From IMG/VR virus record IMGVR_UViG_3300035670_013167, positions 42,764 to 106,763 of that record: a stretch of 64,000 bases of DNA; one strand, written 5' to 3'. The notes beneath the pieces are model-generated. The model ran no database searches. It was given only the letters and a program-made list of their open reading frames with translations, and had not been told where the DNA came from. Both the position numbers and the translations under genes were made by a program. Source of the stretch: a virus. Below are positions 1,282 to 42,896 of this stretch, piece after piece. Numbering within the stretch: the stretch's first letter is position 1; the number at the start of each line of letters is the position of its first letter.

Positions 1282-1420
1282 ACTACCCACCCGCTAAAGC
1301 GAGTGGGCTTCAAGTTTCATAGCCTTGTCTAACGACAACGACTCCACTTGTTTTTGTTTATTGAGCGACTTGGTTCCCAAGCCACTCATATTCAAACCTT
1401 GTTTTAGTATGTTGAGACTA
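1258..1420 (-). ncRNA. Predicted TnpB omega/reRNA (scaffold over the tnpB 3' end and right end, guide from flank 1258-1277)
   Basis: Established TnpB architecture; right-end hairpin visible; 5' boundary is approximate. Confidence 0.55.
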
Positions 1421-2460
1421 GCGTTATAGTCTCGGTCAATGTTCTTTCCGCAAACGCATTTCCATTCACGGTCTTTCAGCGTCAACTCTTGATTGATGTG
1501 TCCACAATCATAGCAAGTTTTACTGCTCGGAAAGAATCTGTCTATTTTCACAATTGTTCGCCCGTACCATTCTGCCTTGTAGGATAGTTGACGAACAAAC
1601 TCTCCCCAACCGCAATTCATCACTGATTTTGCCAACTTATGATTACGCATAATGCCTTTAACATTAAGGTCTTCTACGCATATGACTTGGTTTTCGTCAA
1701 TCAACTTTTTGGAAAGTTTATGCAAGAAGTCCGTTCTATTGTTGGTGATTTTTTCATATATCTTGGCTAGTTTTATTCTTTGTTTATTTCTAGTTGATCC
1801 TCCTTTATTCTTTTTGCTTAACTGTTTTTGGTTGTATTTCAAATTCTTTTCTAGTTTGTGGTAGTGTTTGGGGTTGTCAAAAACTTCGCCGTTGGAACAA
1901 ACAACAAAATTTTTGATGCCCAAATCAATGCCTATTTTGTTCTTGTTTTTCTTGAGTTTATTTTGCCCAACCTCACAAGTCAACGAAACGAAGTATTTGT
2001 TGGTGGAAGTCTTGGATATGGTAATGAACCTTATCTCTCCAAATTCACGATGGATGTTTAGTTTGATTCCTTCCTTGAATTTGGGGAAATATATCTTGTC
2101 TTTTTTGATTGAAATGTGTTGCGGAACTCTAAATGACTGTTTCTTGTGCTTTGACTTGAAAATTGGAAACTTGGTTTCTTTCCTGAAGAACTTGTTGTAT
2201 GCTGTATCTAAATCTCGTAATGTATGTTGCAATGTTTGGCTGTTCACTTCCTTGAGCCAGTTGTATTCAGTCTTCTTTTTAACTTTGGTTAGTTCATTGG
2301 CACAATCGTAATAGTTCAATGTCTTTTTGTTGTCCAAATATTCTTCTTTTCGTCTGTTCAAGAAGTAGTTCCACACAAACCTTCTGCAACCAAAGTGCTG
2401 GCTCAGTTTTTCTTTTTGGTCTTTTGTGGGTAGTAGTTGAAACTTGAACGACTTTAGCAT
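1294..2460 (-). CDS. tnpB: RNA-guided endonuclease TnpB
   Basis: HTH_OrfB N-terminus (FGCRRFVWN), RuvC IGIDLG / VEDL / DRDYNA, zinc ribbon CYDCG...CVCG; catalytic residues intact. Confidence 0.95.
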   Translation of the reverse strand: MLKSFKFQLLPTKDQKEKLSQHFGCRRFVWNYFLNRRKEEYLDNKKTLNYYDCANELTKVKKKTEYNWLKEVNSQTLQHTLRDLDTAYNKFFRKETKFPIFKSKHKKQSFRVPQHISIKKDKIYFPKFKEGIKLNIHREFGEIRFITISKTSTNKYFVSLTCEVGQNKLKKNKNKIGIDLGIKNFVVCSNGEVFDNPKHYHKLEKNLKYNQKQLSKKNKGGSTRNKQRIKLAKIYEKITNNRTDFLHKLSKKLIDENQVICVEDLNVKGIMRNHKLAKSVMNCGWGEFVRQLSYKAEWYGRTIVKIDRFFPSSKTCYDCGHINQELTLKDREWKCVCGKNIDRDYNASLNILKQGLNMSGLGTKSLNKQKQVESLSLDKAMKLEAHSL

Positions 2461-4989: not shown

Positions 4990-7505
4990 TTAATCCTCTG
5001 TTTTTGGTACATCAAAAGGGCAATCATCTTCATCCATTATAACAGGATCTATAGAAAATCTCAACTTCATTTGTTTGCCTCCTCTAGATGGACTTAGAAA
5101 TCTAGAAAAAAGCAAATCATGTTCAATTGGATTAACATCTGTGATACCTAGACAATAACAGACCAAAGAACCAACTACGCTACCGCGACCTGGACCTACA
5201 GCCTCTGACCCGTCTCCATAACCTAGTAATTTTGGACAGATTCTTCTAGCCTCGTCAGTCATCATTTTTTGAATCAAAAAGTAGCTAGCGAATCCTTTTT
5301 GACATATCAATTGATATTCTTCTTTTATTCTGTCTAAATATTTTTTATTTTTAGGCAATCTTCTGAGCTTAAAGCCAATTTGTATGGCTTCTAATAATTT
5401 TTCTTCAGATTCAGGAATATAGGGTAATTTTATAGACCTGTCTAACTCTACACCCTTCGATCTTTGGGCGATTTTAGTTGTATTTATTTTGGCTTGCTCA
5501 AAAATTTCATAAGGAATATCTTCACTATAGTCACTTAGCCATTTTGCATTTAATTCTTCTTCGCTTTTCATCCAAAGATTTTGATCTTGAAGCTCAAACA
5601 AATCTGCCGTTTCGTTTTCTGCTTTTTTTTCTTCTATTTCCTTTAAGGTCTTCTTTGTTTGAACCATTAACATAAGACGCTGCATTTTGCTATCTTCTTG
5701 CAAGCAGTAATGACAATCATTACTTAATATTATTGGCAAATTGTATTTTTCATGAGCTTTAATTATAAACTTGTTATAAGGCTTTTGCTTGTTAAAATCC
5801 AAAAGCATTATTTCAAGATAAAAATTATCTTTGCCAAAAAATTCGATATATCTCTCGACCATTCTAAAGCCTTCTTCTTCGCCGCCACGGTCAAAGGCCT
5901 GTCCTATTTCAGAATTATAACAACAAGATGTAAAAATTAATCCTTCTTTATGATCTTGCAATAATTCGTAATTTATTCTTGGTCTGTAATAGAAGCCTCT
6001 AGTCCATGCGGCAGAAGACAAGTTAACTAAATTACTGTAGCCTTTTTGGCTATAAGCTATGGCTAATAAATGAAAAGATTTTTTAAAGTCTTTTCTTTCT
6101 TCTGGACTCATATGTTCGGTAATTTCCGAAGCTTTTTGTCCGATATTTAAAGTGGGTTGAAGAGGATTGATGTAAAGTTCACAGTTATGAACTATAAAAT
6201 CACTAACATAACTATTATCTTCTTCAACCTCAAAATTAAAAACTTCTATATTTTTTTCTTCTACTGATATACTAGAGATAGGCTTGATTATGTAATTATT
6301 TTTAATAAAGTTTCTTCTATATTTTACATTTTCGGTTATAGGGACAGTATAACAAGTTCTTCCATCTAAAGTTTTATTAGAATACACATTTGACCAAAAA
6401 CCTAAATTAGAAATTATTATTCGAACCTGATACGCGAGGTGGGAGGAGGATGTGCGTAAAGTTTTTTGTTTATTTTTTTTATTTATTTTTTTGCCATCTC
6501 CATCTAACAAGCCATCTAAAAATGCTTTTTGTACTTTTCGTGGCGAATCAAAAATTTGATGAGGGATTTTTTTATTTTTTGATCCCATTCCAATCAAATC
6601 AGACACAACATAACACAAAGGAAGGCAACAAAAACAACAATCCATTTTACTATTTTCTTTATCTTCATAGCACGAAAGATTGATTCCAAATTTATTCAAA
6701 AAATTTGCTGCTCTTTTTGCCAAATCAAGTTCAAAATAATTAAGAGAAAACCTCATGCCGCCTGTAAGCCTGCCATCTTTTTTAGAAAAACTTCCTTCTG
6801 CTGCGAACAGTCCTAAAAAATATGCAAATTCCTCATCTAATTCTATGAACAAAGGAATTTTTTCCCACTTTTTTTGTCCTTTCGAAAAAAATAAATTATC
6901 TATTTTGATTTCATCAGGTTGATATTCTTCTAATTTTATTTTAATATTTTCATGTACATCTTGCATTTGTGGAAATGCAACATAACTAAAATGATTATCT
7001 AGACCCAAACCTGATCTGTGTCTTTTAACAATAATATTCTCTGTTTTTGTCCAAGAATAATTGCCATGTTTGTCAAAAATCATAACTGGGTGGTCTCCAG
7101 TTAGTTGAGTTGTCTTCTTCGATCTTCCTACGCCAGATAATTTGATACTGTAAATTTTACCATTATAATTTTTTTTCATTATTCTCAAAACCGATTTAAA
7201 TCTACCTTTGTGCGTGAGAACTTTATCTCCGACATCTATTTCCGATATGTCCTTAAAACCATCAATTGTATGAATTGGAGTCCCAGCAGGCATACAAGCA
7301 AATATAGGATTTATTCCATACTTTTCACATGCTTGAATTTGCCTTGGAATTCCACCTAGAGAACCATGGTCACTTATACAGAGAAATTGTTGATTGATCT
7401 CTTTGGCTCTTTTAGCATATTCGTGCGCTGTGCCGTATCCGTCAAGAACAGAAAAATCAGAGTTAACTAGTGCAGGTGAAGATGTTCAAAACCAACAATC
7501 TTCAC
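4990..7505 (-). CDS. dnaE: DNA polymerase III alpha, N-terminal half (PHP plus part of palm), intein-containing, interrupted by an 8-nt insert at 7462-7469
   Basis: GTG start at 7505 after AAAGGAG; FEHLHLH then SDFSVLDG, ISDHG, NDCHY, GPGRGSVVGSLV, FSRFLSPSR; ends before the PDIDxD motif. Confidence 0.85.
6184..7296 (-). mobile_element. Intein with LAGLIDADG homing endonuclease in the DnaE PHP domain (371 aa)
   Basis: NPIFA|CMPAGT...FIVHN|CELY; YFLGLFAAEG and FLDGLLDGDG. Confidence 0.92.
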
Positions 7506-7509
7506 CTGC
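7472..7509 (-). promoter_or_regulatory. Strong hairpin covering the dnaE start codon up to just before the premature TAG
   Basis: Perfect 12-bp inverted repeat GCAGGTGAAGAT (7472-7483) / ATCTTCACCTGC (7498-7509). Confidence 0.75.
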
Positions 7510-7560
7510 TTGTCTCCTTTCTGCGTCATTTTTTTTCTCTGCTGCGTGGTGTTGCTTAAA

Positions 7561-7770
7561 CTAATCCTTCTTCAATTGCTTTTTTTTCCAATCTTCCCAT
7601 TTAGAATTAGCTAATGAGACTTTATTTTCTAAAGCAGTTTTTTTATTTTTATAGTCTTCAAAGTATTTTTTAAATTCTTCTTCCAGCAACTTTTTTTCTT
7701 CATGTATTGCGGCAACAGCCTTGCTAAAAACAGCAAATTCTTCAGTTAATAACAATTCAATTTCATTCAT
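7561..7770 (-). CDS. Coiled-coil hypothetical protein
   Basis: AAAGGT RBS; K/E-rich helix. Confidence 0.6.
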   Translation of the reverse strand: MNEIELLLTEEFAVFSKAVAAIHEEKKLLEEEFKKYFEDYKNKKTALENKVSLANSKWEDWKKKQLKKD

Positions 7771-7780
7771 AAAAACCTTT

Positions 7781-8506
7781 CTAATTAATATCTTTTTTCT
7801 TACGGCCTGTTCTTGTTTTGGCTAATGTTTCAAAACCTTTTTCGCCCAAAATACCATCGGCAAATCCGTAATAAACAGCTTCATCAGCAGAAAGATACCA
7901 ATCCGAATTATGTCTTATTTTGGAATCAATAAAATTCATAGTCTTTTTAATTCCATAACTTCTGTCTGTGAAGTATTTTCCCATTATAGCTCTTTGAGCA
8001 AATATTTGCAACATCCTTTTGTTGTATTTTTCATTCTGATCAATAGCAGATTTTACAGCAATCGCATTATCGCTTACAGAAACAGATCCATGATGAATCA
8101 TAACTTCGCAATCTGGCAGTAAGACTCTTTTATCCGCTGCTTGAAGTATAATACCACTCATGGACGAAGCTTGAGCGTACGATAATATAGTCACAGGAGA
8201 AGATATTAATCTAATTATATTAAACATCGCCATTCCATCAGACCAACATCCACCTATTGTGTGCATATGAATTAATATATTTTTATGATTTTGAGCCTCT
8301 AGGATATGCATGTTTTTTATAAACTTGGTGGCCATTCGATAATCTACGCCAGGCTCTTCCTCATCAACACCATCCATATGACCATGCAAATAAATCTCTC
8401 TAGAATGATGATTTACATTATTATTATGAATGTCACTAATCAACTGCTCTATGGCAGTAACTTTTTTGGGCGTATAAATTTGACTCATAAGTGTATCTGT
8501 GGGCAT
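7781..8506 (-). CDS. clpP: ClpP-family protease proteolytic subunit
   Basis: REIYL.G, HTIGG...G, QASSMS (Ser), MIHH (His), DWYLSADEAVYYGFAD (Asp). Confidence 0.85.
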   Translation of the reverse strand: MPTDTLMSQIYTPKKVTAIEQLISDIHNNNVNHHSREIYLHGHMDGVDEEEPGVDYRMATKFIKNMHILEAQNHKNILIHMHTIGGCWSDGMAMFNIIRLISSPVTILSYAQASSMSGIILQAADKRVLLPDCEVMIHHGSVSVSDNAIAVKSAIDQNEKYNKRMLQIFAQRAIMGKYFTDRSYGIKKTMNFIDSKIRHNSDWYLSADEAVYYGFADGILGEKGFETLAKTRTGRKKKDIN

Positions 8507-8585
8507 TTGAGTTACACCTATATTTAGACATAATAAAATCCATAATGCATTTTTTTAATAAATTATTAATAATTTATTAAAAAAA

Positions 8586-10205
8586 TTAATAAGAGTCATA
8601 ATTTGGAGATCCTATTCCCAAATATTGGTCTCTTTCTACAACGTCAATTACATCCTCTCCTAAACACCTATAAATAAGCTCTGTGCCGTCTGCGGTCTTG
8701 GTCGATAGGCAGACATCATTTTTCCATAAATACCTCAGAGATTGAATTACAGGCCTTATATAGGGGTCGTAAAGCGGTCTGCCGTCCGATTTGTGCTCTA
8801 AAAATAAAATTCCTTTTCCTTTGTGATTACAATCAGTTAGATAAATTTCGGGCAATCCGCCATTTGTGTATCTTTGAATTAATTTTTTTTTAATTTTTTT
8901 ATGATCTCTACTTTCTATTTTATATTCGCCATTCGGATATTTTTTCCATTCAAAAAATTGATACTTTTCACAAAATTCAGGAGTAAAAAACTCCATAATA
9001 AAAGTCAAATCATTATAGAACTTTCTAACTTCAAAAACCTTATCATGACCCAAATTTAATTTTTTATCCCAATTTTCTTTCTCTCTAATATCTTCGCAGT
9101 CTTCCCACTCAGTGCCAAATTGTCCTTTATTCCATCTTTCTTCAATATCCAAAAATAAACAAAAACCTAATTTATAAGGATTCATAGAATATTTTCCACC
9201 AAGAACCCCCATTTTATGATGAGAGTATTCTATAATTCCAGAACTTTCATGACTCTGGCCTAAAGCACTGAATCCTTGTTTTGCCATTATATTATAGTCA
9301 CAGAAAGAAGCCCAACCCTCATTTATAGTTTTGGTCAACCTCTGGGGGGCGAAGTACATACTCTCATCATAAAGCATAGCGACTATGTCTGCTTCCCAAG
9401 GCTTGAGGGGAGCATAATCCCTAATAAACCTCATTATGTCCTTCGTAGAATTATTAAATATATCTAAATATTCCGCAGCTTCTATTTTTTGAATTTTTTC
9501 TTGTTGCTTGTTTATCCAATCTTGTGGATTTAAATAGTCATCCATATAGTCATGGTCTTCTTTTGACTTTAATCTACTCGGATGTCTATAAATTCTTTCA
9601 TCCTTTATTATCGGATTTTTAATTTTTTTTCTTTCCCAAGATTTTGAAAAATCTATTAAAGTTTCAATTCTCAAGACATGATCTATAAATTCTGTTACTC
9701 TTTCTTTGCCCCAACGACTCATGTACTCTCTAATTCTGGTGCCGTGGTTAGCCAATTGATTCATCATGTTTTGGCTTGTTTGAGAAAAATAAATATTATT
9801 CTTAAAAAAATCAGCGTGGCCTAAAGCGTGAGCAACCACAGTAACATTATCGACCAAAGTATTAGAATCTAAACAATAAAGGTATACTGGGTTTGTGTTA
9901 ACTACCATTTCGTATATCTTATGCATTCCATAAACATATCCTCTTTGTAGCTCTTCATATTCCATTCCCCATCTCCAATGAGGAAAGCGAACAGGAAACC
10001 CTCCATATGCTGCTATCTCACTAATTTCATCATAAGTCAGCATTTCAACAACAGTTGGATAAAAATCACAACCAAAATCACTTACTTTTTTATAAATTTC
10101 AGGCAATAATTTTTTAAGTTCAGGAGGAAGAGAAACTCCTGGAATTGTGTTGTCTCCCATTAAGACAGGAGACCCATGCATAAATTTTTCAGATTTTTTA
10201 TTCAA
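8586..10205 (-). CDS. spoVR: SpoVR/YcgB family protein
   Basis: GFPVRFPHWRWG, KIYEMVVN, VVAHALGHADFFKNN, TKTINEGWASF, NPYKLG. Confidence 0.93.
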   Translation of the reverse strand: MNKKSEKFMHGSPVLMGDNTIPGVSLPPELKKLLPEIYKKVSDFGCDFYPTVVEMLTYDEISEIAAYGGFPVRFPHWRWGMEYEELQRGYVYGMHKIYEMVVNTNPVYLYCLDSNTLVDNVTVVAHALGHADFFKNNIYFSQTSQNMMNQLANHGTRIREYMSRWGKERVTEFIDHVLRIETLIDFSKSWERKKIKNPIIKDERIYRHPSRLKSKEDHDYMDDYLNPQDWINKQQEKIQKIEAAEYLDIFNNSTKDIMRFIRDYAPLKPWEADIVAMLYDESMYFAPQRLTKTINEGWASFCDYNIMAKQGFSALGQSHESSGIIEYSHHKMGVLGGKYSMNPYKLGFCLFLDIEERWNKGQFGTEWEDCEDIREKENWDKKLNLGHDKVFEVRKFYNDLTFIMEFFTPEFCEKYQFFEWKKYPNGEYKIESRDHKKIKKKLIQRYTNGGLPEIYLTDCNHKGKGILFLEHKSDGRPLYDPYIRPVIQSLRYLWKNDVCLSTKTADGTELIYRCLGEDVIDVVERDQYLGIGSPNYDSY

Positions 10206-11383
10206 GATTTTACCTTTCCTAAAAGATCAACTATTGATTTCTTAATTTGAGAATCTCTATCGTCCTCTGACAATTGCATGTTTGGCAAACTATGTGCTGG
10301 ATGTGCTATTTGAGTTGTAACCAAATTTGAAAAATTACTTTGATCTATAGCTTGCTTTAAGCTTCCATCGTAGTTCCAAGCTAATACTTGTGTTATTCCC
10401 ACCATGTTGACAATTTTAGAATTAAAATCATCTTGTAAAATTTTTATAAATTGCTGATTGTCCCCGTCCCAATTTTCACCATCTGTAAAATAAAATAAAT
10501 AAATATTCCACTTTAAGGGATTGTATCTGTTTTCAAACATTTTTTGAATTAATTTTAGTGCTGACGAACAAGTTGTGCCTCCGCCATATCTGTACTTGTA
10601 GAATCTGCTTTCATCGACTTCTTTGGCAACGGTATCATGCCAAACATACACTCGCTCTACTTTTTCATAAAATCTTCTAATCCATACATCAATCCACCAA
10701 CTCATATCACTAACAATATCGCATTTATATTGATCCATTGAGGCAGATCCATCTCTAGCAAAAAATATAACTGCATTGCTTGAAGGTATTTTTATCTCAT
10801 TGAATTGACGGTATCTCTTATCGCTATTAATAGGAGTTATAAGTTTTACTGGATGAGCAAATCCTGGTATGTCGTGGAGATTATTTATGGAACCATCAGA
10901 ACATTGTCTTTTTAAGGCTTGCCTAAGAGTTCTTGCATTGTGCCTTAAGGACTCAGGGCCAGTCAGCGATATATTATTATATTTCTTAATAATTTCTTCA
11001 TAAGTGTCACTAGGCTTTGGCTTCATGTCGGGAAGTTGCAATTCTTCTTGAAGAAATTTCAAAACCTCTTCAAGATCAACAGCAATCTCTATGCCTTCGC
11101 CTTCTTCTTGTCCGGCTTTATTGCCTTTTCCGTCTCCTTGATCTTTATCTTTTCCTATGACCTTACCATTTTCTCCTTCTCCTCTTCCTATTCCTCCGCT
11201 TCCATTATCACCAAAAACAATATGCGGAATATCTATTTTTGGAATAGTTAATATAACTTTACCATCTTTACCGCGATTCCTAAAAATACTTCCATTTTTA
11301 ATGTATTTTTTTAATTCTTTTCTTTTTCTGCCGGCATATACGTCATGGAACTCTTTATGGTCTTCATGTATTCGGCGGGGCAT
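10202..11383 (-). CDS. yeaH: YeaH/YhbH (DUF444) vWA-like protein
   Basis: Gly-rich GIGRGEG..AGQEEG, DKRYR, SNAVIFFARDGSASM, GGTTCSSA, WNIYLFYFTDGENW. Confidence 0.92.
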   Translation of the reverse strand: MPRRIHEDHKEFHDVYAGRKRKELKKYIKNGSIFRNRGKDGKVILTIPKIDIPHIVFGDNGSGGIGRGEGENGKVIGKDKDQGDGKGNKAGQEEGEGIEIAVDLEEVLKFLQEELQLPDMKPKPSDTYEEIIKKYNNISLTGPESLRHNARTLRQALKRQCSDGSINNLHDIPGFAHPVKLITPINSDKRYRQFNEIKIPSSNAVIFFARDGSASMDQYKCDIVSDMSWWIDVWIRRFYEKVERVYVWHDTVAKEVDESRFYKYRYGGGTTCSSALKLIQKMFENRYNPLKWNIYLFYFTDGENWDGDNQQFIKILQDDFNSKIVNMVGITQVLAWNYDGSLKQAIDQSNFSNLVTTQIAHPAHSLPNMQLSEDDRDSQIKKSIVDLLGKVKS

Positions 11384-11397
11384 TTTTCATCCTTTGA

Positions 11398-14300
11398 TTA
11401 GTCGTTATCAGCAACATCGCCGCGAGCGAAAATTGAACCCACGTAGTCCAAAACATCAGTAGCAGATTGTTCGTTATATCCGTATTGAGATATAAGTCTT
11501 TGCTTTACTGCGTCTATCTTTTCTTGAACATCCTTATCAACAACAGCAGCTCCCTTAATATTTAGAGCCGAAAGCTTGATGTGATCCTTTGTGTCTTCAA
11601 AAAGCTTAGCTTCTAAAGCTTTCTTGAGTTGAGGATTGCTATCCCATCTAAATTGCTTTCCACTATGGGCCAAGTGCCCAATAAATCCTGCTAAAGATCT
11701 TCTAAAATCATCTGCTCCGACTTCGGGAATATCTATCTTCTCTTCTATAGATCTCATTAATCTTTCGTCTGGCTCTTGGTCTTGTTCTGTGAATGGATTT
11801 TTAATCTTAGTGCCATCAATATAAGCCATCACATTATCAATATAATTGCCACATAGCCTTTCGATAGCAGTTTCATCTCCTACAAGAGCCTTTTGAACTT
11901 CTGTTTTCAATATTTGATCCAGTTCTTTTCTAGCCAAGTCTACACACGTAATATATTTAGACTTTTCTTCTTCACTAGTAAATAAAGATTGATGATCTAT
12001 TCCATTTTTCAATTCATTTAGAACCATAAAGAAATTTATATAATCATAATGAGAACTAAGACAATTAGAAATTTTGTCTTGAGTATATCTACAACTTACT
12101 CCCACAAACATGCCTTCATCGGGATATTTATCCTTGAGTTCTTTTATAGAGTCTTCAGTCCAACCAGGAAGAGATCTTCCATCATATAATTTAGCTTTCT
12201 CAACTAGAGTTATTTTGCCATCTTTATCATCTTGAAGTCTGGTTAAGACTGTCCAGAGAGCAGCAATTTCCAAGGTATGGGGAGCAATGTGCTGCTTTAC
12301 TCTTCCTCTACCGTAGTAGTACTCTAGTATCTTAAGTTCTTCGCTCCATCTTAATAAGTACGGAACATCAATCTTCACAGTACGATCTCTCAAAGCTTCC
12401 ATAGTCTGATCGCTTTTTAACTTTTCATACTCTGGATTATTGGTGTGAGAAATTAAAACAGTGTCTATGCTAATTTGTGGAAATTTTTTAGGCTTGATTT
12501 GACGTTCCTGAGATGCTCCAAGCAAATCATATAAAAATTCTTTAGCCAACTTTAGAACTTCGATAAATTCAACAACGCCTCTATTTCCAACACAGTTGTG
12601 AACAACTATATCATTTGCCAAAAACGAATGATCTTCTTCTACCTCAAAATCAAAAACCTGTAGGTCAGAAACATTGTTGAAAGAAATAGATTTAATTTTT
12701 CTTGCATATCCAAAAACAGTTCTGTTGACATCTGTCTCGTATAATTCAATTCCATTTTGCCTAACTTCTTCGGCAAAGTCTTCAAAAATGTCTAAGGACT
12801 TTTTGCCTGACGCTCCTACAACATATGCTTTTTTATGGTTTTCAAAAGCAGGCCTGGCATAGGACGATGATCCCATGCCGCTGGACAGCATAAGAACAGA
12901 AATATCTCTGGCTAATTTTTCTGATATTGTTACGCCCGTTATTGACATTGCGGGCTTACCTTTAATTTTTTTAATTTTTCTGTGGCCGTCTCCATCAAGC
13001 CACCCAGATATCAATCCCATCTTAACTGACTCGTTTGAGGTCATAAATACAGGAGGTATTCTTTTTGTTCCGGCCAAACCCGCACAAAACTTAGAGAAAA
13101 ATTTGGCTAAATTAACATTGTTGACCTCGACTATTCTTCCTGTTTTATTTTTATTAACTAACCTATGAGTGGCATTTACTCCGAAAATACTATTGACCAA
13201 TAGTATTATTTCATTAGCTAAATTTTCTTCTTTAGCGCTCAGATTAAAAATAACCTTTTTACTAGTGCAATTTCCTTCTGCTAAATATAGGCCAAATAAC
13301 CTGGCAAAGGAGTGTGTTACGTGCAAATATCTATTGACTACATTTTTCTTTTCTCCAGTTGGGATTCTAACTTTTTCCACGCCATTTTCAAATGTAGAAA
13401 CAAAATTATCCAAATAAATAGATAAATCAACAACTTGATCAATACAATTTCTATTCCAGCCTATTAACACCCTGTCGTTTTCGTTCAAATCAGAAGCTTT
13501 TTTCCAAACTAAATTGCCGGGCTTCCATCTCCAATTTTGACTACTTTCCATAACCGCAACAGGATGATCTGCGGTCATTGTAATTGGAAAAGGAAAATGA
13601 GAAACATTCAAAGTAACCATTTCCCCAGTATACTTTCTATTCATCGTATCGATAACAGACCTTACATTGCCAAGATGAGTAACAACTTCATCTCCAATTT
13701 TTACATCTTCTATGTTTTTTTCAGACCCATCTCCCATGCGAACCAAAGTTCCAGCAGGAAAACAAAACTCGCCGTCAAAGTTAAATGCTCTTGAATCAGA
13801 ATCGGTGCCAAAGTGGGTCAACTTGCCCCAATTAACATCTCCAGTTAATTCTGTGCTGTCTTGATTTTTTTCATCCTTTGGCTGGAAGGTGGCTATTCCC
13901 ATTCTATCTGATTCCGAATGGTTTTTTCTTATTACTCTTATGTGATTCTCTATAACTTTTTCCCAATCGCCTTCGTACTTAACCAATAGTTCTTTCATGA
14001 ACTTTTTAGATCTCGGATCAAGGTCTCCCTCAACATTTAATTTATACAAATTTATTTTTTCTTTTTCATCCGTTTGATCTGCCAATATTTCATTAAGTTC
14101 TTTTAGAACTTCTTTTCTAATTTCAGAAGGTATTAGCTTTAGTGGATCTTCGTGCATTGGAGATTCGTCTTCTGGCTGCGTGTATAGGCCATCGTCTTTG
14201 CCAGTTGGCAAATTAACCCATTTAAATGTGTACCAAGCTCCATCATCAGTTAGAGAATACTTTTCCAAGCCTCTCTTGATACACCTTAATATTGTTGATT

Positions 14301-14649
14301 TAGAAGATCCAACAGGACCGTGCAAAAGAAGCACTCGACGTTCAGGACCATATCCTCCTGCTGCTCCTTTGAAGAATTGAACGAGTTGATGCAACGTTTC
14401 TTCTAGACCAAAGATGGGAACTTCAGGATCATCAAAAAAACTATAGTGAACGTATGTTTTTCTATACTTCTCTACTTTTTTCGTACCTTTTGACATGATC
14501 ATGTCATAAAGATATTGATAAGCAGTTCTTGCTAATTTAGGATTTTTATAAACTAATGACAAATAATCAGAAAAACTCATTTCCTCGTTTAGTTTTTGAA
14601 AATTATCTTTATTAAATTTATTAGCAATTTTTGATAAGACGTTTTCCAT
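11398..14649 (-). CDS. prkA: PrkA/YeaG family AAA+ ATPase (Ser/Thr kinase annotation) with intein
   Basis: LLHGPVGSSKST, FQPKDEKNQDSTELTG, FNFDGEF, EFIEVLKL, EALRDR, HIAPHTLE. Confidence 0.93.
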   Translation of the reverse strand: MENVLSKIANKFNKDNFQKLNEEMSFSDYLSLVYKNPKLARTAYQYLYDMIMSKGTKKVEKYRKTYVHYSFFDDPEVPIFGLEETLHQLVQFFKGAAGGYGPERRVLLLHGPVGSSKSTILRCIKRGLEKYSLTDDGAWYTFKWVNLPTGKDDGLYTQPEDESPMHEDPLKLIPSEIRKEVLKELNEILADQTDEKEKINLYKLNVEGDLDPRSKKFMKELLVKYEGDWEKVIENHIRVIRKNHSESDRMGIATFQPKDEKNQDSTELTGDVNWGKLTHFGTDSDSRAFNFDGEFCFPAGTLVRMGDGSEKNIEDVKIGDEVVTHLGNVRSVIDTMNRKYTGEMVTLNVSHFPFPITMTADHPVAVMESSQNWRWKPGNLVWKKASDLNENDRVLIGWNRNCIDQVVDLSIYLDNFVSTFENGVEKVRIPTGEKKNVVNRYLHVTHSFARLFGLYLAEGNCTSKKVIFNLSAKEENLANEIILLVNSIFGVNATHRLVNKNKTGRIVEVNNVNLAKFFSKFCAGLAGTKRIPPVFMTSNESVKMGLISGWLDGDGHRKIKKIKGKPAMSITGVTISEKLARDISVLMLSSGMGSSSYARPAFENHKKAYVVGASGKKSLDIFEDFAEEVRQNGIELYETDVNRTVFGYARKIKSISFNNVSDLQVFDFEVEEDHSFLANDIVVHNCVGNRGVVEFIEVLKLAKEFLYDLLGASQERQIKPKKFPQISIDTVLISHTNNPEYEKLKSDQTMEALRDRTVKIDVPYLLRWSEELKILEYYYGRGRVKQHIAPHTLEIAALWTVLTRLQDDKDGKITLVEKAKLYDGRSLPGWTEDSIKELKDKYPDEGMFVGVSCRYTQDKISNCLSSHYDYINFFMVLNELKNGIDHQSLFTSEEEKSKYITCVDLARKELDQILKTEVQKALVGDETAIERLCGNYIDNVMAYIDGTKIKNPFTEQDQEPDERLMRSIEEKIDIPEVGADDFRRSLAGFIGHLAHSGKQFRWDSNPQLKKALEAKLFEDTKDHIKLSALNIKGAAVVDKDVQEKIDAVKQRLISQYGYNEQSATDVLDYVGSIFARGDVADND
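12595..13764 (-). mobile_element. Intein with LAGLIDADG endonuclease in PrkA (390 aa)
   Basis: DGEF|CFPAGT...IVVHN|CVGNRG; block B TADHPV; LFGLYLAEG and ISGWLDGDG. Confidence 0.92.
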
Positions 14650-39214: not shown

Positions 39215-40251
39215 TAATTTTTCTCAAAAATTCTATTATGAGTGTTATTTACCCTAACAAATGTACAACATTTGCTGAAGTCTTTCAAGGTCTCTGTGCC
39301 GACATATGTGCAAGCACTCCTAATTCCTCCCAATAACTCAATAATAGTATCTTCAACAAATCCTTTGTAGGAAACCCAGACCGACCGACCTTCTGAAGCT
39401 CTGTAATTACATTGGCCGCCATTAAACTTCTTCATGGCCTCTTTACTACTCATTCCATAAAAATTCAAAAACTTTTTATTTCCATCATTATCATATTCCC
39501 AATCGCCTTCGCATTCTTCATGGCCACTCAACATTCCCCCCAACATAACAAAATCAGCACCCGCTCCAAATGCTTTTGCAACATCTCCAGATGATGTACA
39601 ACCGCCATCAGCAACAATGTGGCCCCGTAAGCCATGGGCGGCATCTGCACACTCTGCTATACAACTTAGCTGCGGATATCCTACGCCCGTGACTATTCTC
39701 GTTGTACATGCACTACCGCCGCCAATTCCAACCTTAACTATATCGACACCCCCGTTGAGCAATAATTCTTGAACCATCTCAGGAGTGCATATATTACCAG
39801 CCATGAGAACAGAATCTTTAAATTTTTCTCTTATAATTTTACATTTCTCTTCAAAATATTTTGTATATCCATTAGCAACATCTAAACAAATATATTTTGG
39901 AACATACCCTGCCACTTTTATAAAATTATTCAACTTATCGAAATCATCTTCTTTAATTCCTAATGTGTAAAAAGCTTGATGATTCTTAAAGAATTCAACC
40001 AACTGATTCACAGTGTAATGCTTGTGAAGACAAACGCTCATGTCATACTTAGAAAAAACATTCGCCATAGCAAAGGTTCCAGTTGTGCTCATATTAGCAG
40101 CTACTATTGGAACTCCTTGCCATTCAACGCCAGAATTTAAGAATTTAAAGTTTCTAACAAGGCTGACATTTTTTCTACTGGGAGATTCTGATCTTTTTGG
40201 GCGAATCAAAACATCAGAAAAATCTAACTTAATTTCGTTTTCAATTCTCAT
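39214..40251 (-). CDS. guaC: GMP reductase
   Basis: KLDFSDVLIRPKRS, AANM, LDVANGY, KVGIGGGSACTTR, GYPQLS, FYGMSS, YRASEG. Confidence 0.95.
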   Translation of the reverse strand: MRIENEIKLDFSDVLIRPKRSESPSRKNVSLVRNFKFLNSGVEWQGVPIVAANMSTTGTFAMANVFSKYDMSVCLHKHYTVNQLVEFFKNHQAFYTLGIKEDDFDKLNNFIKVAGYVPKYICLDVANGYTKYFEEKCKIIREKFKDSVLMAGNICTPEMVQELLLNGGVDIVKVGIGGGSACTTRIVTGVGYPQLSCIAECADAAHGLRGHIVADGGCTSSGDVAKAFGAGADFVMLGGMLSGHEECEGDWEYDNDGNKKFLNFYGMSSKEAMKKFNGGQCNYRASEGRSVWVSYKGFVEDTIIELLGGIRSACTYVGTETLKDFSKCCTFVRVNNTHNRIFEKN

Positions 40252-40322
40252 TTATTAATTTCCTTATAAACAAACTATATTTTATTAGATTTTAGACTTT
40301 TGTCAATCGTAATGGGAGAAAT

Positions 40323-40598
40323 TTGAGAAGAAAAAAACTCATCAATAAAAAAATAAAAAAATTAACAGATAAAAAATGCAAGTTTTGTTTACAAGAAGAT
40401 TATTGCACCCTACAAGTACACAGAATAAAACCTGGCTGCGAGGGTGGAGAATATACAGAGTTCAATACAGTCACCACATGTAGCAACTGTCACAATAAAA
40501 TTCATGATAAAAAAATAAAAATAGATAGAAAGTATCAATCAACAAAAGGATGGATACTTCATTATTGGGATGAAAACGGGAATGAGCATTGGGACTAA
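40323..40598 (+). CDS. Small HNH endonuclease
   Basis: CKFC, LQVHRI.PG..GG.Y, N...CSNCH..IH. Confidence 0.8.
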   Translation: MRRKKLINKKIKKLTDKKCKFCLQEDYCTLQVHRIKPGCEGGEYTEFNTVTTCSNCHNKIHDKKIKIDRKYQSTKGWILHYWDENGNEHWD

Positions 40599-40740
40599 AT
40601 AATAAAATTATTAGAAACTAATTTTATTTTAACATAATTTTCATCATAATTTTCTATTTCAACTACGGTTTTTCCTAAAAAACAATCTCCAATTTTAATA
40701 TTTTTTGATTTTTCTACTAAGTAACAATTTTCTTCTAATT

Positions 40741-41304
40741 TCAATTAGATCCACCTCCTAAATAGTCAAATTCCGAGATAGAGACCATTCCTGTTCTGAT
40801 AGACTTTTCTCTTGTGATTCTTTTGCCCAAATTTTTCTGAGCATTCCATGTTATAGCTTTGCAATAAGTTATAAATTTGGAATCCATAATCAATCCTGCT
40901 TTTTTGTTTGGTCTTTCAGATATTGGAACTAAGCACTTCACTAATTTATCTAATATCTTTTCTTGGTATGGGCCAAACTTTTGACGGTTAGCTCCGTGTC
41001 TAGTTTTGTTTTTCCAAAGATTAGCCAATTGCTTAATCATAGATTTTATAAAATCATCTTTAGCGTACTTCTTGCAAATCTCTAAAGACCTTTCGATATA
41101 GCACTGTCTTTTGTAGTAAGAAGCTGCTCGCAATAAAGCTATTCTCATATCTTGAGCAATATCTTCTTGGCTATCTGTATGGTTGTTTCTGGCATTTTTT
41201 TTAATTAATTGCCAAGCCTGATATTCACAAAGTTCGCCAAATTTATTATCTAATTGCATGTATTCTTCTTCTGTAACAGGAAAAGAATTTTGTATAACTT
41301 TCAT
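40741..41304 (-). CDS. Sigma-factor region-2-like protein (candidate late sigma)
   Basis: QEDIAQDMRIALLRAA ... KFITYCKAITWNA resemble regions 2.2 and 2.3-2.4; no region 4. Confidence 0.45.
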   Translation of the reverse strand: MKVIQNSFPVTEEEYMQLDNKFGELCEYQAWQLIKKNARNNHTDSQEDIAQDMRIALLRAASYYKRQCYIERSLEICKKYAKDDFIKSMIKQLANLWKNKTRHGANRQKFGPYQEKILDKLVKCLVPISERPNKKAGLIMDSKFITYCKAITWNAQKNLGKRITREKSIRTGMVSISEFDYLGGGSN

Positions 41305-41315
41305 TTTAACCTCTT

Positions 41316-42623
41316 TTAATATTTTATAAGTTTATTTAAATTTTCTCCAAAATGACAAGAAGTTTTCAATTTTAAATTAGGAAACAAATCATCATCTTCT
41401 TCCAAAACTTTTTTACTTAATTCAATGATAGACCTATATTCTTTTTTATTACAAGAAATACAATATCCGTCATGTAAATGAAAGCATATCTTAGCCTTAT
41501 TTGATAAGGCCTCATGCAGCTTTACAAGTTTTCTTAAGCAAATCATGTTTGATGGTGATTGTATACAAAAATTTTTAATTTTATACAACTCGTCTTTTTG
41601 AAATTTTCTTCTTCTACCGAATATATCAGTAGCAAAATTGTTGCTATCGGTAGCTTGGCTTTTAACCCAAGCAAAAGCAACGGGAAAGGATCGTTCTAAA
41701 TTATATATTAGTTTAGTTGCATTTTTTTCGCTAATTCCAATTCTTTTAGATAAAGAAAATGCTCCTTGACCAAAAATAACAGGCAAAAAGATATTTTTAC
41801 ATATTTTTCTTTGATCTTCTGTCGCGTCTTGATTTGTTAGCTTTTTCCAAATTAAATCATATAAATCGTCCTGAGATCTGGTGAACTCCATTAATTTTTC
41901 ATCTTTTGTAATCCAAGCTAAAACACTAACCTCCATGTGTTTATAATCAAAATAAACAAAGTATTCTTGATCGCTTGGCAATCTCAAATTACTCTTTTCT
42001 TTTTCACCCATGGAATGTGGCAAAAAACAATCTTTTAATACTTTTAAATTTTTCATTCTTCCATTAGATTGACCTTCAATTTCATAATAAGAATACACAA
42101 GCCGTTTAGCAGCAACGTCAACAAGAGGATTCGTTTCGATGCTAGGAATAACTCGACAAATTAAAGGGTAAAAAACTTCTTCATAAAACTTCTCAAAGTT
42201 CTTCCAGCCATCTGTTTTTCTTATATAATTCATAAGAAAAAAAGCATCTTTTGAAGAATTTGGCTTTTTTCTAGGCAGACTAAAATAAGAACATATTAAA
42301 TTTAGATCATATACAACTTTATTGAATTGTATATTTATTTGAGATTTTTTTCTGAAGTAAGAGATTATATTTTTTAGATTCCAAGAAATAAGATCGCAAT
42401 TTTTTGTATAAAAATAAAAACTTGCTGCGATGTTTTCTATGTCTTTTTCATTTTGCAAGCCAATAGTGAATTTATTTCCATTAGTTTGAATACTCAAATC
42501 AATTAAAGAATCATCAGTCCAATCAACGTGATCTTGCTCAAAATGAAAAAAAACTTTTGAGTCTTGTATAGATTCTAAAACAGACGCTACTTCTTGCATT
42601 TGCGTATTATATTTGAAAAACAA
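41316..42623 (-). CDS. Family A DNA polymerase-like protein, polymerase domain only, divergent
   Basis: SNGRM, motif A FDYKHME, motif B RKICKNIFLPVIFG, DIFGRRR, NFCIQS, motif C LHDG. Confidence 0.8.
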   Translation of the reverse strand: MFFKYNTQMQEVASVLESIQDSKVFFHFEQDHVDWTDDSLIDLSIQTNGNKFTIGLQNEKDIENIAASFYFYTKNCDLISWNLKNIISYFRKKSQINIQFNKVVYDLNLICSYFSLPRKKPNSSKDAFFLMNYIRKTDGWKNFEKFYEEVFYPLICRVIPSIETNPLVDVAAKRLVYSYYEIEGQSNGRMKNLKVLKDCFLPHSMGEKEKSNLRLPSDQEYFVYFDYKHMEVSVLAWITKDEKLMEFTRSQDDLYDLIWKKLTNQDATEDQRKICKNIFLPVIFGQGAFSLSKRIGISEKNATKLIYNLERSFPVAFAWVKSQATDSNNFATDIFGRRRKFQKDELYKIKNFCIQSPSNMICLRKLVKLHEALSNKAKICFHLHDGYCISCNKKEYRSIIELSKKVLEEDDDLFPNLKLKTSCHFGENLNKLIKY

Positions 42624-42626
42624 AGA

Positions 42627-42896
42627 TTAATCTATTGGTTTGATAATTTTTTGAGTTTGTCTAATTAAACGATCTTCATTTTTATATTTGTCATTCTTAA
42701 TTTTTCTTACATTAATTCTTTTTTCTCTTTCTTTTTTACTCACTCCAATAGATCCTTTATTTCTTTTTTTTATAATAGAAAAATAAACATTCTTATTAAT
42801 TTGTTGATCTTTATAAAATTTTTCAATAGCTTCATCTAAGGTAATTCCAAGTTTCTTAGATAATCTTTTTATATTTCTTCTATGTTTTTTTAACAT
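42627..42896 (-). CDS. Basic hypothetical protein
   Basis: K/R-rich ORF directly upstream of the Pol A-like gene. Confidence 0.5.
   Translation of the reverse strand: MLKKHRRNIKRLSKKLGITLDEAIEKFYKDQQINKNVYFSIIKKRNKGSIGVSKKEREKRINVRKIKNDKYKNEDRLIRQTQKIIKPID

Follow-up and report, generated by a model that had tools for sequence, protein, structure and literature searches.

A candidate ribosomal hop over a stop-first 8-nt gap in the dnaE gene of a giant phage

The 64,000-nucleotide (nt) stretch of viral DNA analyzed here, called the window (positions 42,764 to 106,763 of IMG/VR record IMGVR_UViG_3300035670_013167), carries on its minus strand a dnaE gene whose reading frame is broken close to its 5' end. 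A Shine-Dalgarno (SD) sequence and a GTG start codon open a leader frame of 12 codons, MKIVGFEHLHLH, the last of which, CAC, is followed by TAG. This stop is the first triplet of an 8-nt insert, TAGTTAAC, behind which the sequence continues in another frame with SDFSVLDG. A first-pass annotation, made from the letters alone, had described this stop-containing insert directly after a strong hairpin, a downstream frame open for more than 800 codons, and a perfect 12-bp stem around the start codon that ends in CAC; all three descriptions hold at the coordinates given in Table 1. Its proposal of a programmed bypass or frameshift is likewise supported, by an insert that begins with a stop, by its fixed position, and by a covarying hairpin found in interrupted alleles only. 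Judged from these sequences, the site is very probably one of programmed translational recoding, and the recoding itself fairly likely takes the form of a ribosomal hop that restores the canonical PHP motif.

The main dnaE frame encodes the N-terminal half of the alpha subunit of DNA polymerase III, that is, the PHP domain and the start of the palm (Pfam: PHP, 1.6e-31; DNA_pol3_alpha, 9.9e-25). On its 5' side it is closed by a TGA within the leader, and its first 56 codons hold no ATG, GTG or TTG, the first of these being found at 7293. Downstream of the gap, the PHP domain contains an intein (Pfam: LAGLIDADG_3, Intein_splicing, Hom_end and Hint_2), whose borders, read from the translation, fall between A and C at one end and between HN and C at the other. 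It is missing in 53 of the 54 relatives described below, L056 alone having a similar-sized insertion there. The gene is also split a second time: its N-terminal part runs into a short unrelated tail, and the remaining catalytic domain (PF07733 positions 100-260) follows on that strand at a distance of about 6 kb, with genes for TnpB, an ATP-grasp protein and a methyltransferase, among others, in between.

Table 1. Positions of the features discussed. Unprefixed numbers are positions in the window; other numbers carry the name of their locus or contig or are marked as approximate for each locus.
Feature	Position	Strand	Remarks
SD sequence AAAGGAG of leader frame	7520-7514	minus	read directly from the sequence; 8 nt 5' of GTG
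GTG start of 12-codon leader frame	7505-7503	minus	read directly from the sequence
Hairpin 5' arm, GCAGGTGAAGAT	7509-7498	minus	contains GTG start codon
Hairpin loop, 14 nt	7497-7484	minus	codes for part of IVGFE
Hairpin 3' arm, ATCTTCACCTGC	7483-7472	minus	codes for HLHL; ends in first base of take-off CAC
Proposed take-off codon CAC	7472-7470	minus	His 12, last His of PHP motif HxH
8-nt coding gap	7469-7462	minus	first triplet is the TAG stop, 7469-7467
Candidate landing triplet AAC	7464-7462	minus	predicted; equals CAC at positions 2 and 3
Resume codon TCT	7461-7459	minus	Ser of HLHLH-S-DFSVLDG; opens SDFSVLDG
Main dnaE frame	7461-4990	minus	823 codons; stop at 4992-4990
Intein with LAGLIDADG homing-endonuclease domain	7296-6184	minus	in dnaE PHP domain, 55 codons past gap
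End of N-terminal dnaE part	4990-5130		ends soon after FSRFLSPSRGG
Remainder of dnaE	G000:C1 ~40000-41700		outside window; loci L002 and L004
Open reading frame upstream of dnaE	7561-7770		
ClpP-like protease gene, SpoVR-like gene, then two long open reading frames	7781-14649	minus	upstream of dnaE
Gene for acidic protein	124-1281	plus	long DDDMDMED-type repeat
Short open reading frame through (AC)n microsatellite	2527-2841	minus	adjoins TnpB gene
TnpB gene	1294-2460		
Leu-stop-Leu sites of relatives	~5840-5850 each locus		L006, L007, L011
Long gaps of relatives	~5770-5830 each locus		L016, L030, L033, L039, L051
Free-standing HNH endonuclease genes of relatives	L040:4915-5742, L048:4575-5744, L007:4794-5795, L051:4528-5742, L049:4785-5561		directly upstream of dnaE
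Group I introns of relatives	L027:5614-5839, L049:5610-5837, L053:5563-5825		RF00028; without open reading frame; at two different codons of the motif
tmRNA genes of relatives	L016:9051-9414, L027:9550-9908, L033:7704-8047, L049:12562-12937, L053:12923-13285		RF00023

The insert is bridged by sequence of other origin. A wastewater-metagenome contig from an unrelated study spans 7312-7513 without gaps and with two substitutions, and an estuary contig spans 7435-7612 with zero differences, the latter being marginal, with just 27 nt flanking the insert at one end.

A protein-guided scan of viral contigs gave 54 related loci (57-89% identity). At the start of dnaE, 17 of these have the uninterrupted motif HLHLH[S/T]D[F/Y/N]S[V/L]LDG, and 24 have a short, stop-first insert right after the last His, as in the window. 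An in-frame 6-nt insert six codons later is found in three loci (L006, L007 and L011), a gap of 40-47 nt past the Asp codon in five, and a group I intron (RF00028, 75-102 bits), placed between FSL and LDG or after TD, in the remaining five. The motif has the same length in all 17 uninterrupted relatives. The frame downstream of the interruptions is intact over dozens of lineages, and only one PHP gene was found on each of five relatives of 136-245 kb.

From the viral loci and from pattern scans of viral and metagenome contigs, we assembled 31 distinct alleles of the short insert, including that of the window. The first-pass annotation had asked whether related phage dnaE genes keep an insert and a hairpin at this codon, and they do: about 30 alleles are interrupted there, all of them with a hairpin. 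The inserts are mostly 8 nt (19 alleles) or 7 nt (nine alleles) long, with one allele each at 5, 6 and 9 nt. Every one of the 31 begins with a stop in the leader frame, which is mostly TAG, with TGA in L014 and L086 and TAA in L083; the inserts of L005 (TAGTTCTT) and L086 (TGATTCTT) differ by two substitutions, and the stop is preserved. The take-off codon is CAC or CAT across all alleles, the start codon at the equivalent place in relatives is GTG, ATG or TTG, and an SD sequence is also found at the equivalent place.

The 3' end of the insert is similarly constrained, being C or T in 31 of 31 alleles. The last triplet reads NAY in 22 of them and so equals a His codon at positions 2 and 3, and in two further alleles a cognate His codon stands there, take-off and landing triplets forming the matched pairs CAT...CAC (L063) and CAT...CAT (L107). 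The near match of AAC to CAC that the first-pass annotation had noted for the window thus generalizes. The palindrome AGTTAACT, which it had also read in the insert, is missing in the relatives and is, on that comparison, incidental.

The hairpin of the window, with 12 perfect pairs, has a minimum free energy of −26.1 kcal/mol (z = −4.37), and none of 200 shuffled sequences was as stable. Nothing comparable is present among the 25 pairs in the inverted-repeat list of the window. The hairpin was found in every allele with a short insert and is missing from the uninterrupted relatives: minimum free energies range from −23 to −39 kcal/mol in interrupted alleles versus −7.1 to −17.6 kcal/mol in 14 uninterrupted relatives (Mann-Whitney p = 2.5e-6). 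All 12 core pairs are formed in 17 of 17 distinct aligned sequences, with compensatory changes on both sides at three pairs (C-G to A-U, G-C to A-U and A-U to G-C), and neither shuffling nor sliding the register of this 17-sequence alignment reached the observed pairing values. G-U intermediates also occur, and these fit the sense strand only. Metagenome alleles provide more compensated hairpins, with the arms GCAGATGAAGAT/ATCTTCATCTGC, ATGAAGATGGA/TCCATCTTCAT and GAAGGTGGAGG/CCTCCACCTTC.

The encoded residues are conserved as well. GFEHLHLH is kept in all interrupted alleles despite nucleotide change, and the HLHLH amino acids are kept while their codons covary with the 5' arm, which argues that the leader is constrained as a protein too; on the evidence of these alignments, it is under selection both as RNA and as protein. 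One and the same 5' arm, that of the window, occurs with insert lengths of 5, 6 and 8 nt, so that the distance from the hairpin does not set the point at which decoding resumes.

The same motif is interrupted in other ways in the remaining loci. In L006, L007 and L011, SDFSVL is followed by TAA, a second Leu codon and DG, the Leu-stop-Leu codons being CTT TAA CTA, CTT TAA CTT and CTC TAA CTT, respectively. These loci have a separate hairpin, CACCGTGAAATC/GATTTYTCGGTG, with the start codon likewise placed in the 5' arm and the take-off codon marking its end. The site is a candidate for a natural in-frame stop hop; a pattern scan for further Leu-stop-Leu alleles gave only these three loci. The long gaps follow GAC or GAT and measure 47 nt in L016, 41 nt in L039 and 40 nt in L030, L033 and L051, lengths that fall into two frame classes. 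A GC-rich hairpin lies within each gap, the last triplet of which is AAC or GAA, and each of these loci has a hairpin of 10-20 bp that reaches from the start codon to the take-off region.

How might a ribosome cross the gap of the window? In the mechanism that we propose, it would start at the GTG, synthesize the leader peptide and pause while peptidyl-tRNA-His occupies CAC and the A site presents TAG, a stop that is rarely used. At this point the 5' arm of the hairpin would already lie outside the ribosome, with the 3' arm in the E site and the exit channel. As the arms begin to pair, the mRNA would be pulled forward, any forward slide permitting the stem to start. The tRNA would then release CAC, slide 8 nt and settle on the near-cognate AAC, and decoding would restart at TCT, giving a product with the canonical PHP motif HLHLHSDFSVLDG, as in the uninterrupted relatives. 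Pairing of the mRNA leaving the ribosome has been proposed to drive forward bypassing in gene 60 of phage T4 (10.1101/2024.12.09.627546). Ribosome-ribosome spacing also matters for the gene 60 5' stem-loop (10.1101/2024.12.09.627546); with the start codon inside the 5' arm, as here, formation of the stem and loading of a second ribosome would be mutually exclusive, and the hairpin, by burying the start codon, would keep trailing ribosomes off the 5' arm.

Several features of the inserts point to the ribosome as the agent, namely the zero-frame stop kept at the first position of the gap and the pyrimidine at its end, compatible with the wobble base of tRNA-His. The insert lengths fall into all three frame classes within one architecture, so that no single frameshift rule applies and a hop is favored; the in-frame inserts of 6 and 9 nt could be repaired by no frameshift at all. 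A forward hop would cover every insert length by one mechanism and restore the canonical motif each time.

The alternative that fares best, although we regard it as unlikely, is a set of length-specific frameshift and readthrough events: a −1 or +2 shift at CAC-TAG for the 8- and 5-nt inserts, a +1 shift for the 7-nt inserts, and readthrough of the in-frame ones. The window would then yield HLHLH-LVN-SDF or HLHLH-VN-SDF, and one to three extra residues would be placed in the PHP loop. An A-site stop is a classic stimulator of +1 shifts, the variable positions of the 7-nt class are synonymous in the +1 frame (AGY TAY), and the pull of a hairpin that forms where the mRNA exits could move the message 1 or 2 nt just as it could move it 8. 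However, three separate mechanisms would be required for one conserved architecture. The window has no slippery heptamer (C CTG CAC T), tRNA-His is unable to re-pair at −1 (GCA) or +1 (ACU), and no 3' stimulatory structure was found, the fold downstream of the gap having a z of −1.4. The extra residues would moreover vary in number and chemistry inside a motif whose length is otherwise invariant, and the matched Leu codons around the stop in L006, L007 and L011 fit only a hop. The −1 shift that the first-pass annotation had offered, with HLHLH-LVN-SDF as its product, is likewise less favored than a hop, as a −1 shift cannot serve the in-frame and +1 classes among lengths of 5-9 nt.

It is improbable that no fusion protein is made, with TAG terminating translation and the hairpin and leader acting as a regulatory mini-frame or throttle. 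DnaE would in that case be PHP-inactive, be made without the HxH strand, or be a pseudogene tolerated through use of the host polymerase. Sequestration of the start codon by the hairpin would suit such a role, and the PHP domain of some bacterial DnaE enzymes lacks the metal ligands. Against it stand the conservation of GFEHLHLH in all interrupted alleles and that of the intact downstream frame at 57-89% identity, and without fusion the stop at the first position and the pyrimidine at the last would escape selection. The downstream frame also offers no start codon in its first 56 codons, by which reinitiation is ruled out.

Removal of the insert at the RNA level, be it as a micro-intron, by editing, or by hairpin-guided cleavage and ligation, we consider very improbable. 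Group I introns do occur at neighboring sites in relatives, and the hairpin could serve as a recognition element; however, 5-9 nt is far below the size of any self-splicing intron, the window matches no Rfam family (RF00028 or any other), its fold has no bulge-helix-bulge geometry, and a zero-frame stop in first place, as all 31 alleles have it, is a mark of translation with no role in splicing. Finally, the window is a metagenome-assembled contig, and the first-pass annotation had allowed for an assembly error, but an artefact of sequencing or assembly is ruled out by contigs of other studies and habitats, the independent wastewater contig among them, that cross the identical 8 nt without a gap and by homologous inserts in dozens of contigs, which leaves next to no probability for an artefact or for a private lethal mutation of one assembled genome.

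The distribution of the interruptions suggests an origin for them. In L040, L048, L007 and L051, the open reading frame (ORF) directly upstream of dnaE matches HNH endonuclease families of PHROGs (E-values 6e-17 to 9e-36), and that of L049 belongs to the same HNH group by tblastn; Pfam gave no nuclease among the ORFs upstream of dnaE. The five proteins share the motif WHxDHIFP...NCLENLRP...EN together with Cys-rich, zinc-ribbon-like repeats. Of 38 interrupted loci, 20 have an HNH gene or a remnant of its C-terminal tail upstream of dnaE, versus 0 of 17 uninterrupted loci (p = 1.3e-4); counted by lineage, the figures are 11 of 24 versus 0 of 13 (p = 0.003). The HNH-linked loci include short-gap, long-gap, Leu-hop and intron types, with tail vestiges in the intron loci L027, L049 and L053. 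The insert states are scattered on the protein tree, where 22 changes are needed. Sister phages differ, for example L034 having a 7-nt gap and L035 none, and L014 having 5 nt versus 8 nt in L015; upstream of dnaE, sisters share no related sequence.

We infer from these patterns that the gap is an immunity mark of an HNH homing-endonuclease cassette aimed at the conserved dnaE stretch: the nuclease would presumably cut that stretch where it is uninterrupted, and interruptions of any kind would protect their carriers. In the window, the ORF upstream of dnaE encodes 69 residues, ends 40 nt ahead of the dnaE SD sequence and gives no match to a nuclease, nor did a homologue of the nuclease turn up elsewhere in the window, so that the gap there would be an orphan copy whose nuclease gene was lost or never present. 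The suggestion in the first-pass annotation that the insert is the footprint of a lost element thus stands in part, in that relatives carry an HNH gene directly upstream of dnaE.

Several observations weigh against the hop and the origin proposed for it. The landing triplet of the window is only near-cognate (AAC versus CAC), and in seven alleles the last triplet is neither NAY nor a His codon and reads CTT, GTC or TTT. The nascent chain of 12 residues is too short to span the tunnel and hence for the nascent-peptide signal that is essential in T4 gene 60; any effect of the peptide would have to be of another kind. A hairpin of −24 kcal/mol over the start codon should also repress initiation, and it could be mainly a translational throttle. 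The alleles share descent, so that counting them gives more events than arose independently. The window is without an endonuclease gene, so that the cassette origin rests on its relatives.

Taking these points into account, we put forward a broader proposal, tentatively and with doubts that outweigh our confidence. In it, re-forming of the 5' hairpin at the mRNA exit would alone drive an efficient, length-tolerant stop hop over 5-9 nt, one ribosome at a time, without a peptide signal, a structure in the gap or a matched landing site. An HNH homing endonuclease would spread the bypass family, comprising the 5-9 nt, in-frame 6-nt and 40-47 nt gaps, through the dnaE genes of giant phages as immunity marks that could be exchanged for group I introns at the shared target.

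The viral contig from which the window derives is 106.8 kb long with a CheckV completeness of 21%, so that the full genome would be roughly 0.5 Mb. By protein, the nearest entry in GenBank is that of an uncultured 595-kb phage with 56% identity and an uninterrupted dnaE; blastn of the site against GenBank phages gave no match, and no relative in culture came to light. The phage uses the standard genetic code. Under code 11, long ORFs account for 85% of the window, all three stops are used (TAA 31, TGA 17 and TAG 6 in 54 long ORFs, TAG being the rarest), and the window has no tRNA or suppressor, which together rule out an alternative code; recoding of TAG would also be unhelpful, leaving the frame unrestored. 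ARAGORN found no transfer-messenger RNA (tmRNA, RF00023) in the window either. Several relatives carry tmRNA genes (100-151 bits), placed downstream of dnaE at a distance of a few kb. Homologues of the ClpP and SpoVR genes of the window are kept upstream of dnaE in many relatives, and elsewhere the window encodes a repetitive acidic protein and a short microsatellite ORF (Table 1).

Utilized bypassing is known from very few systems, namely T4 gene 60 and its homologues, Magnusiomyces mitochondria and a Streptomyces phage terminase, and our literature searches found no report of the present device in dnaE. If the reading as a hop is true, the family described here would offer a minimal hop of 5-9 nt in dozens of natural variants, with a stop codon and a 5' hairpin as the only stimulators in evidence, and the proposal that pairing of the exiting mRNA drives bypassing could be tested on natural sequence variation. 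An essential replication gene of giant phages is invaded at one conserved motif by short gaps, long gaps and group I introns, with an intein in addition, and a homing endonuclease is attached to its interrupted forms. In practical terms, gene callers will split or truncate dnaE in giant-phage genomes, and annotation pipelines need the pattern.

Programmed frameshifting at prfB (RF2, +1) and dnaX (−1) resembles the site in combining an A-site stop or pause with an upstream element that acts at the mRNA exit side, an SD sequence in prfB. Unlike in those genes, the site has no slippery sequence, re-pairing register or 3' structure. The shift in the window would be −1 or +2 rather than the +1 of prfB, other alleles requiring 0 or +1, and no SD-like sequence precedes CAC; the X XXY YYZ heptamer of −1 sites of the dnaX and insertion-sequence type is likewise missing in the window.

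The byps of Magnusiomyces capitatus mitochondria are GC-rich, 27-55 nt long and numerous per genome. Like the gaps in dnaE, they are short non-coding inserts in essential genes that are neutralized by ribosomal jumping (PMC5009743, PMC10732093), and they behave as mobile or repeated elements. In contrast, each phage genome has a single site, the gap there measures 5-9 nt, the ribosome is of bacterial type, and a 5' hairpin contains the start codon. In the terminase of Streptomyces phage Hau3, a phage gene is also joined by bypassing, there with a confirmed junction peptide, and a slow A-site codon triggers take-off (PMC10732093). The trigger in Hau3 is, however, the rare sense codon UUA, which depends on the bldA tRNA, and the gene, the gap and the structures differ (PMC10732093).

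Short forward hops of peptidyl-tRNA over a stop, with decoding resumed just past the landing triplet, were obtained at low level in synthetic E. coli constructs without stimulators (Weiss et al. 1987, summarized in PMC5009743), and the exact matched Leu-stop-Leu layout of such hops recurs in L006, L007 and L011. Natural short hops have long been expected, and no natural in-frame stop hop was known at the time of a 2016 review (PMC5009743). Unlike the constructs, the dnaE site is natural and conserved and has a dedicated hairpin, and in the window the pair CAC/AAC is unmatched and the frame is changed.

The closest parallel in layout is drawn with T4 gene 60, where a 50-nt gap is bypassed and is associated with the HNH cassette MobA (10.1101/2024.12.09.627546, 10.1101/2022.08.31.505936). 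In both cases, the take-off codon is followed immediately by a stop, a stem-loop lies upstream of it, and the gap interrupts an essential replication gene of a large phage close to its 5' end. An HNH endonuclease gene lies beside the gap in T4 and in relatives of the window, though not in the window itself; the distribution is patchy in both, with some copies lacking the nuclease, and the 40-47 nt gaps of relatives, which also hold a hairpin, reproduce a two-hairpin layout. The differences are equally specific. The gene is dnaE rather than a topoisomerase gene, and the gap of 8 nt (5-9 nt in the family) is too small for an A-site stem-loop. Landing in the window is on a near-cognate triplet that matches at two of three positions, whereas the T4 codons are matched, and a nascent chain of 12 residues leaves no possibility of a signal from the tunnel. 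The 5' hairpin abuts the take-off codon, from which it is 9 nt away in T4, and it contains the start codon; it is the best conserved element here and is reported not to be conserved in gene 60 homologues. While missing several defining features of gene 60, namely the gap structure, the matched landing site, the peptide signal and the host gene, the dnaE device would nonetheless appear to work like gene 60 bypassing.

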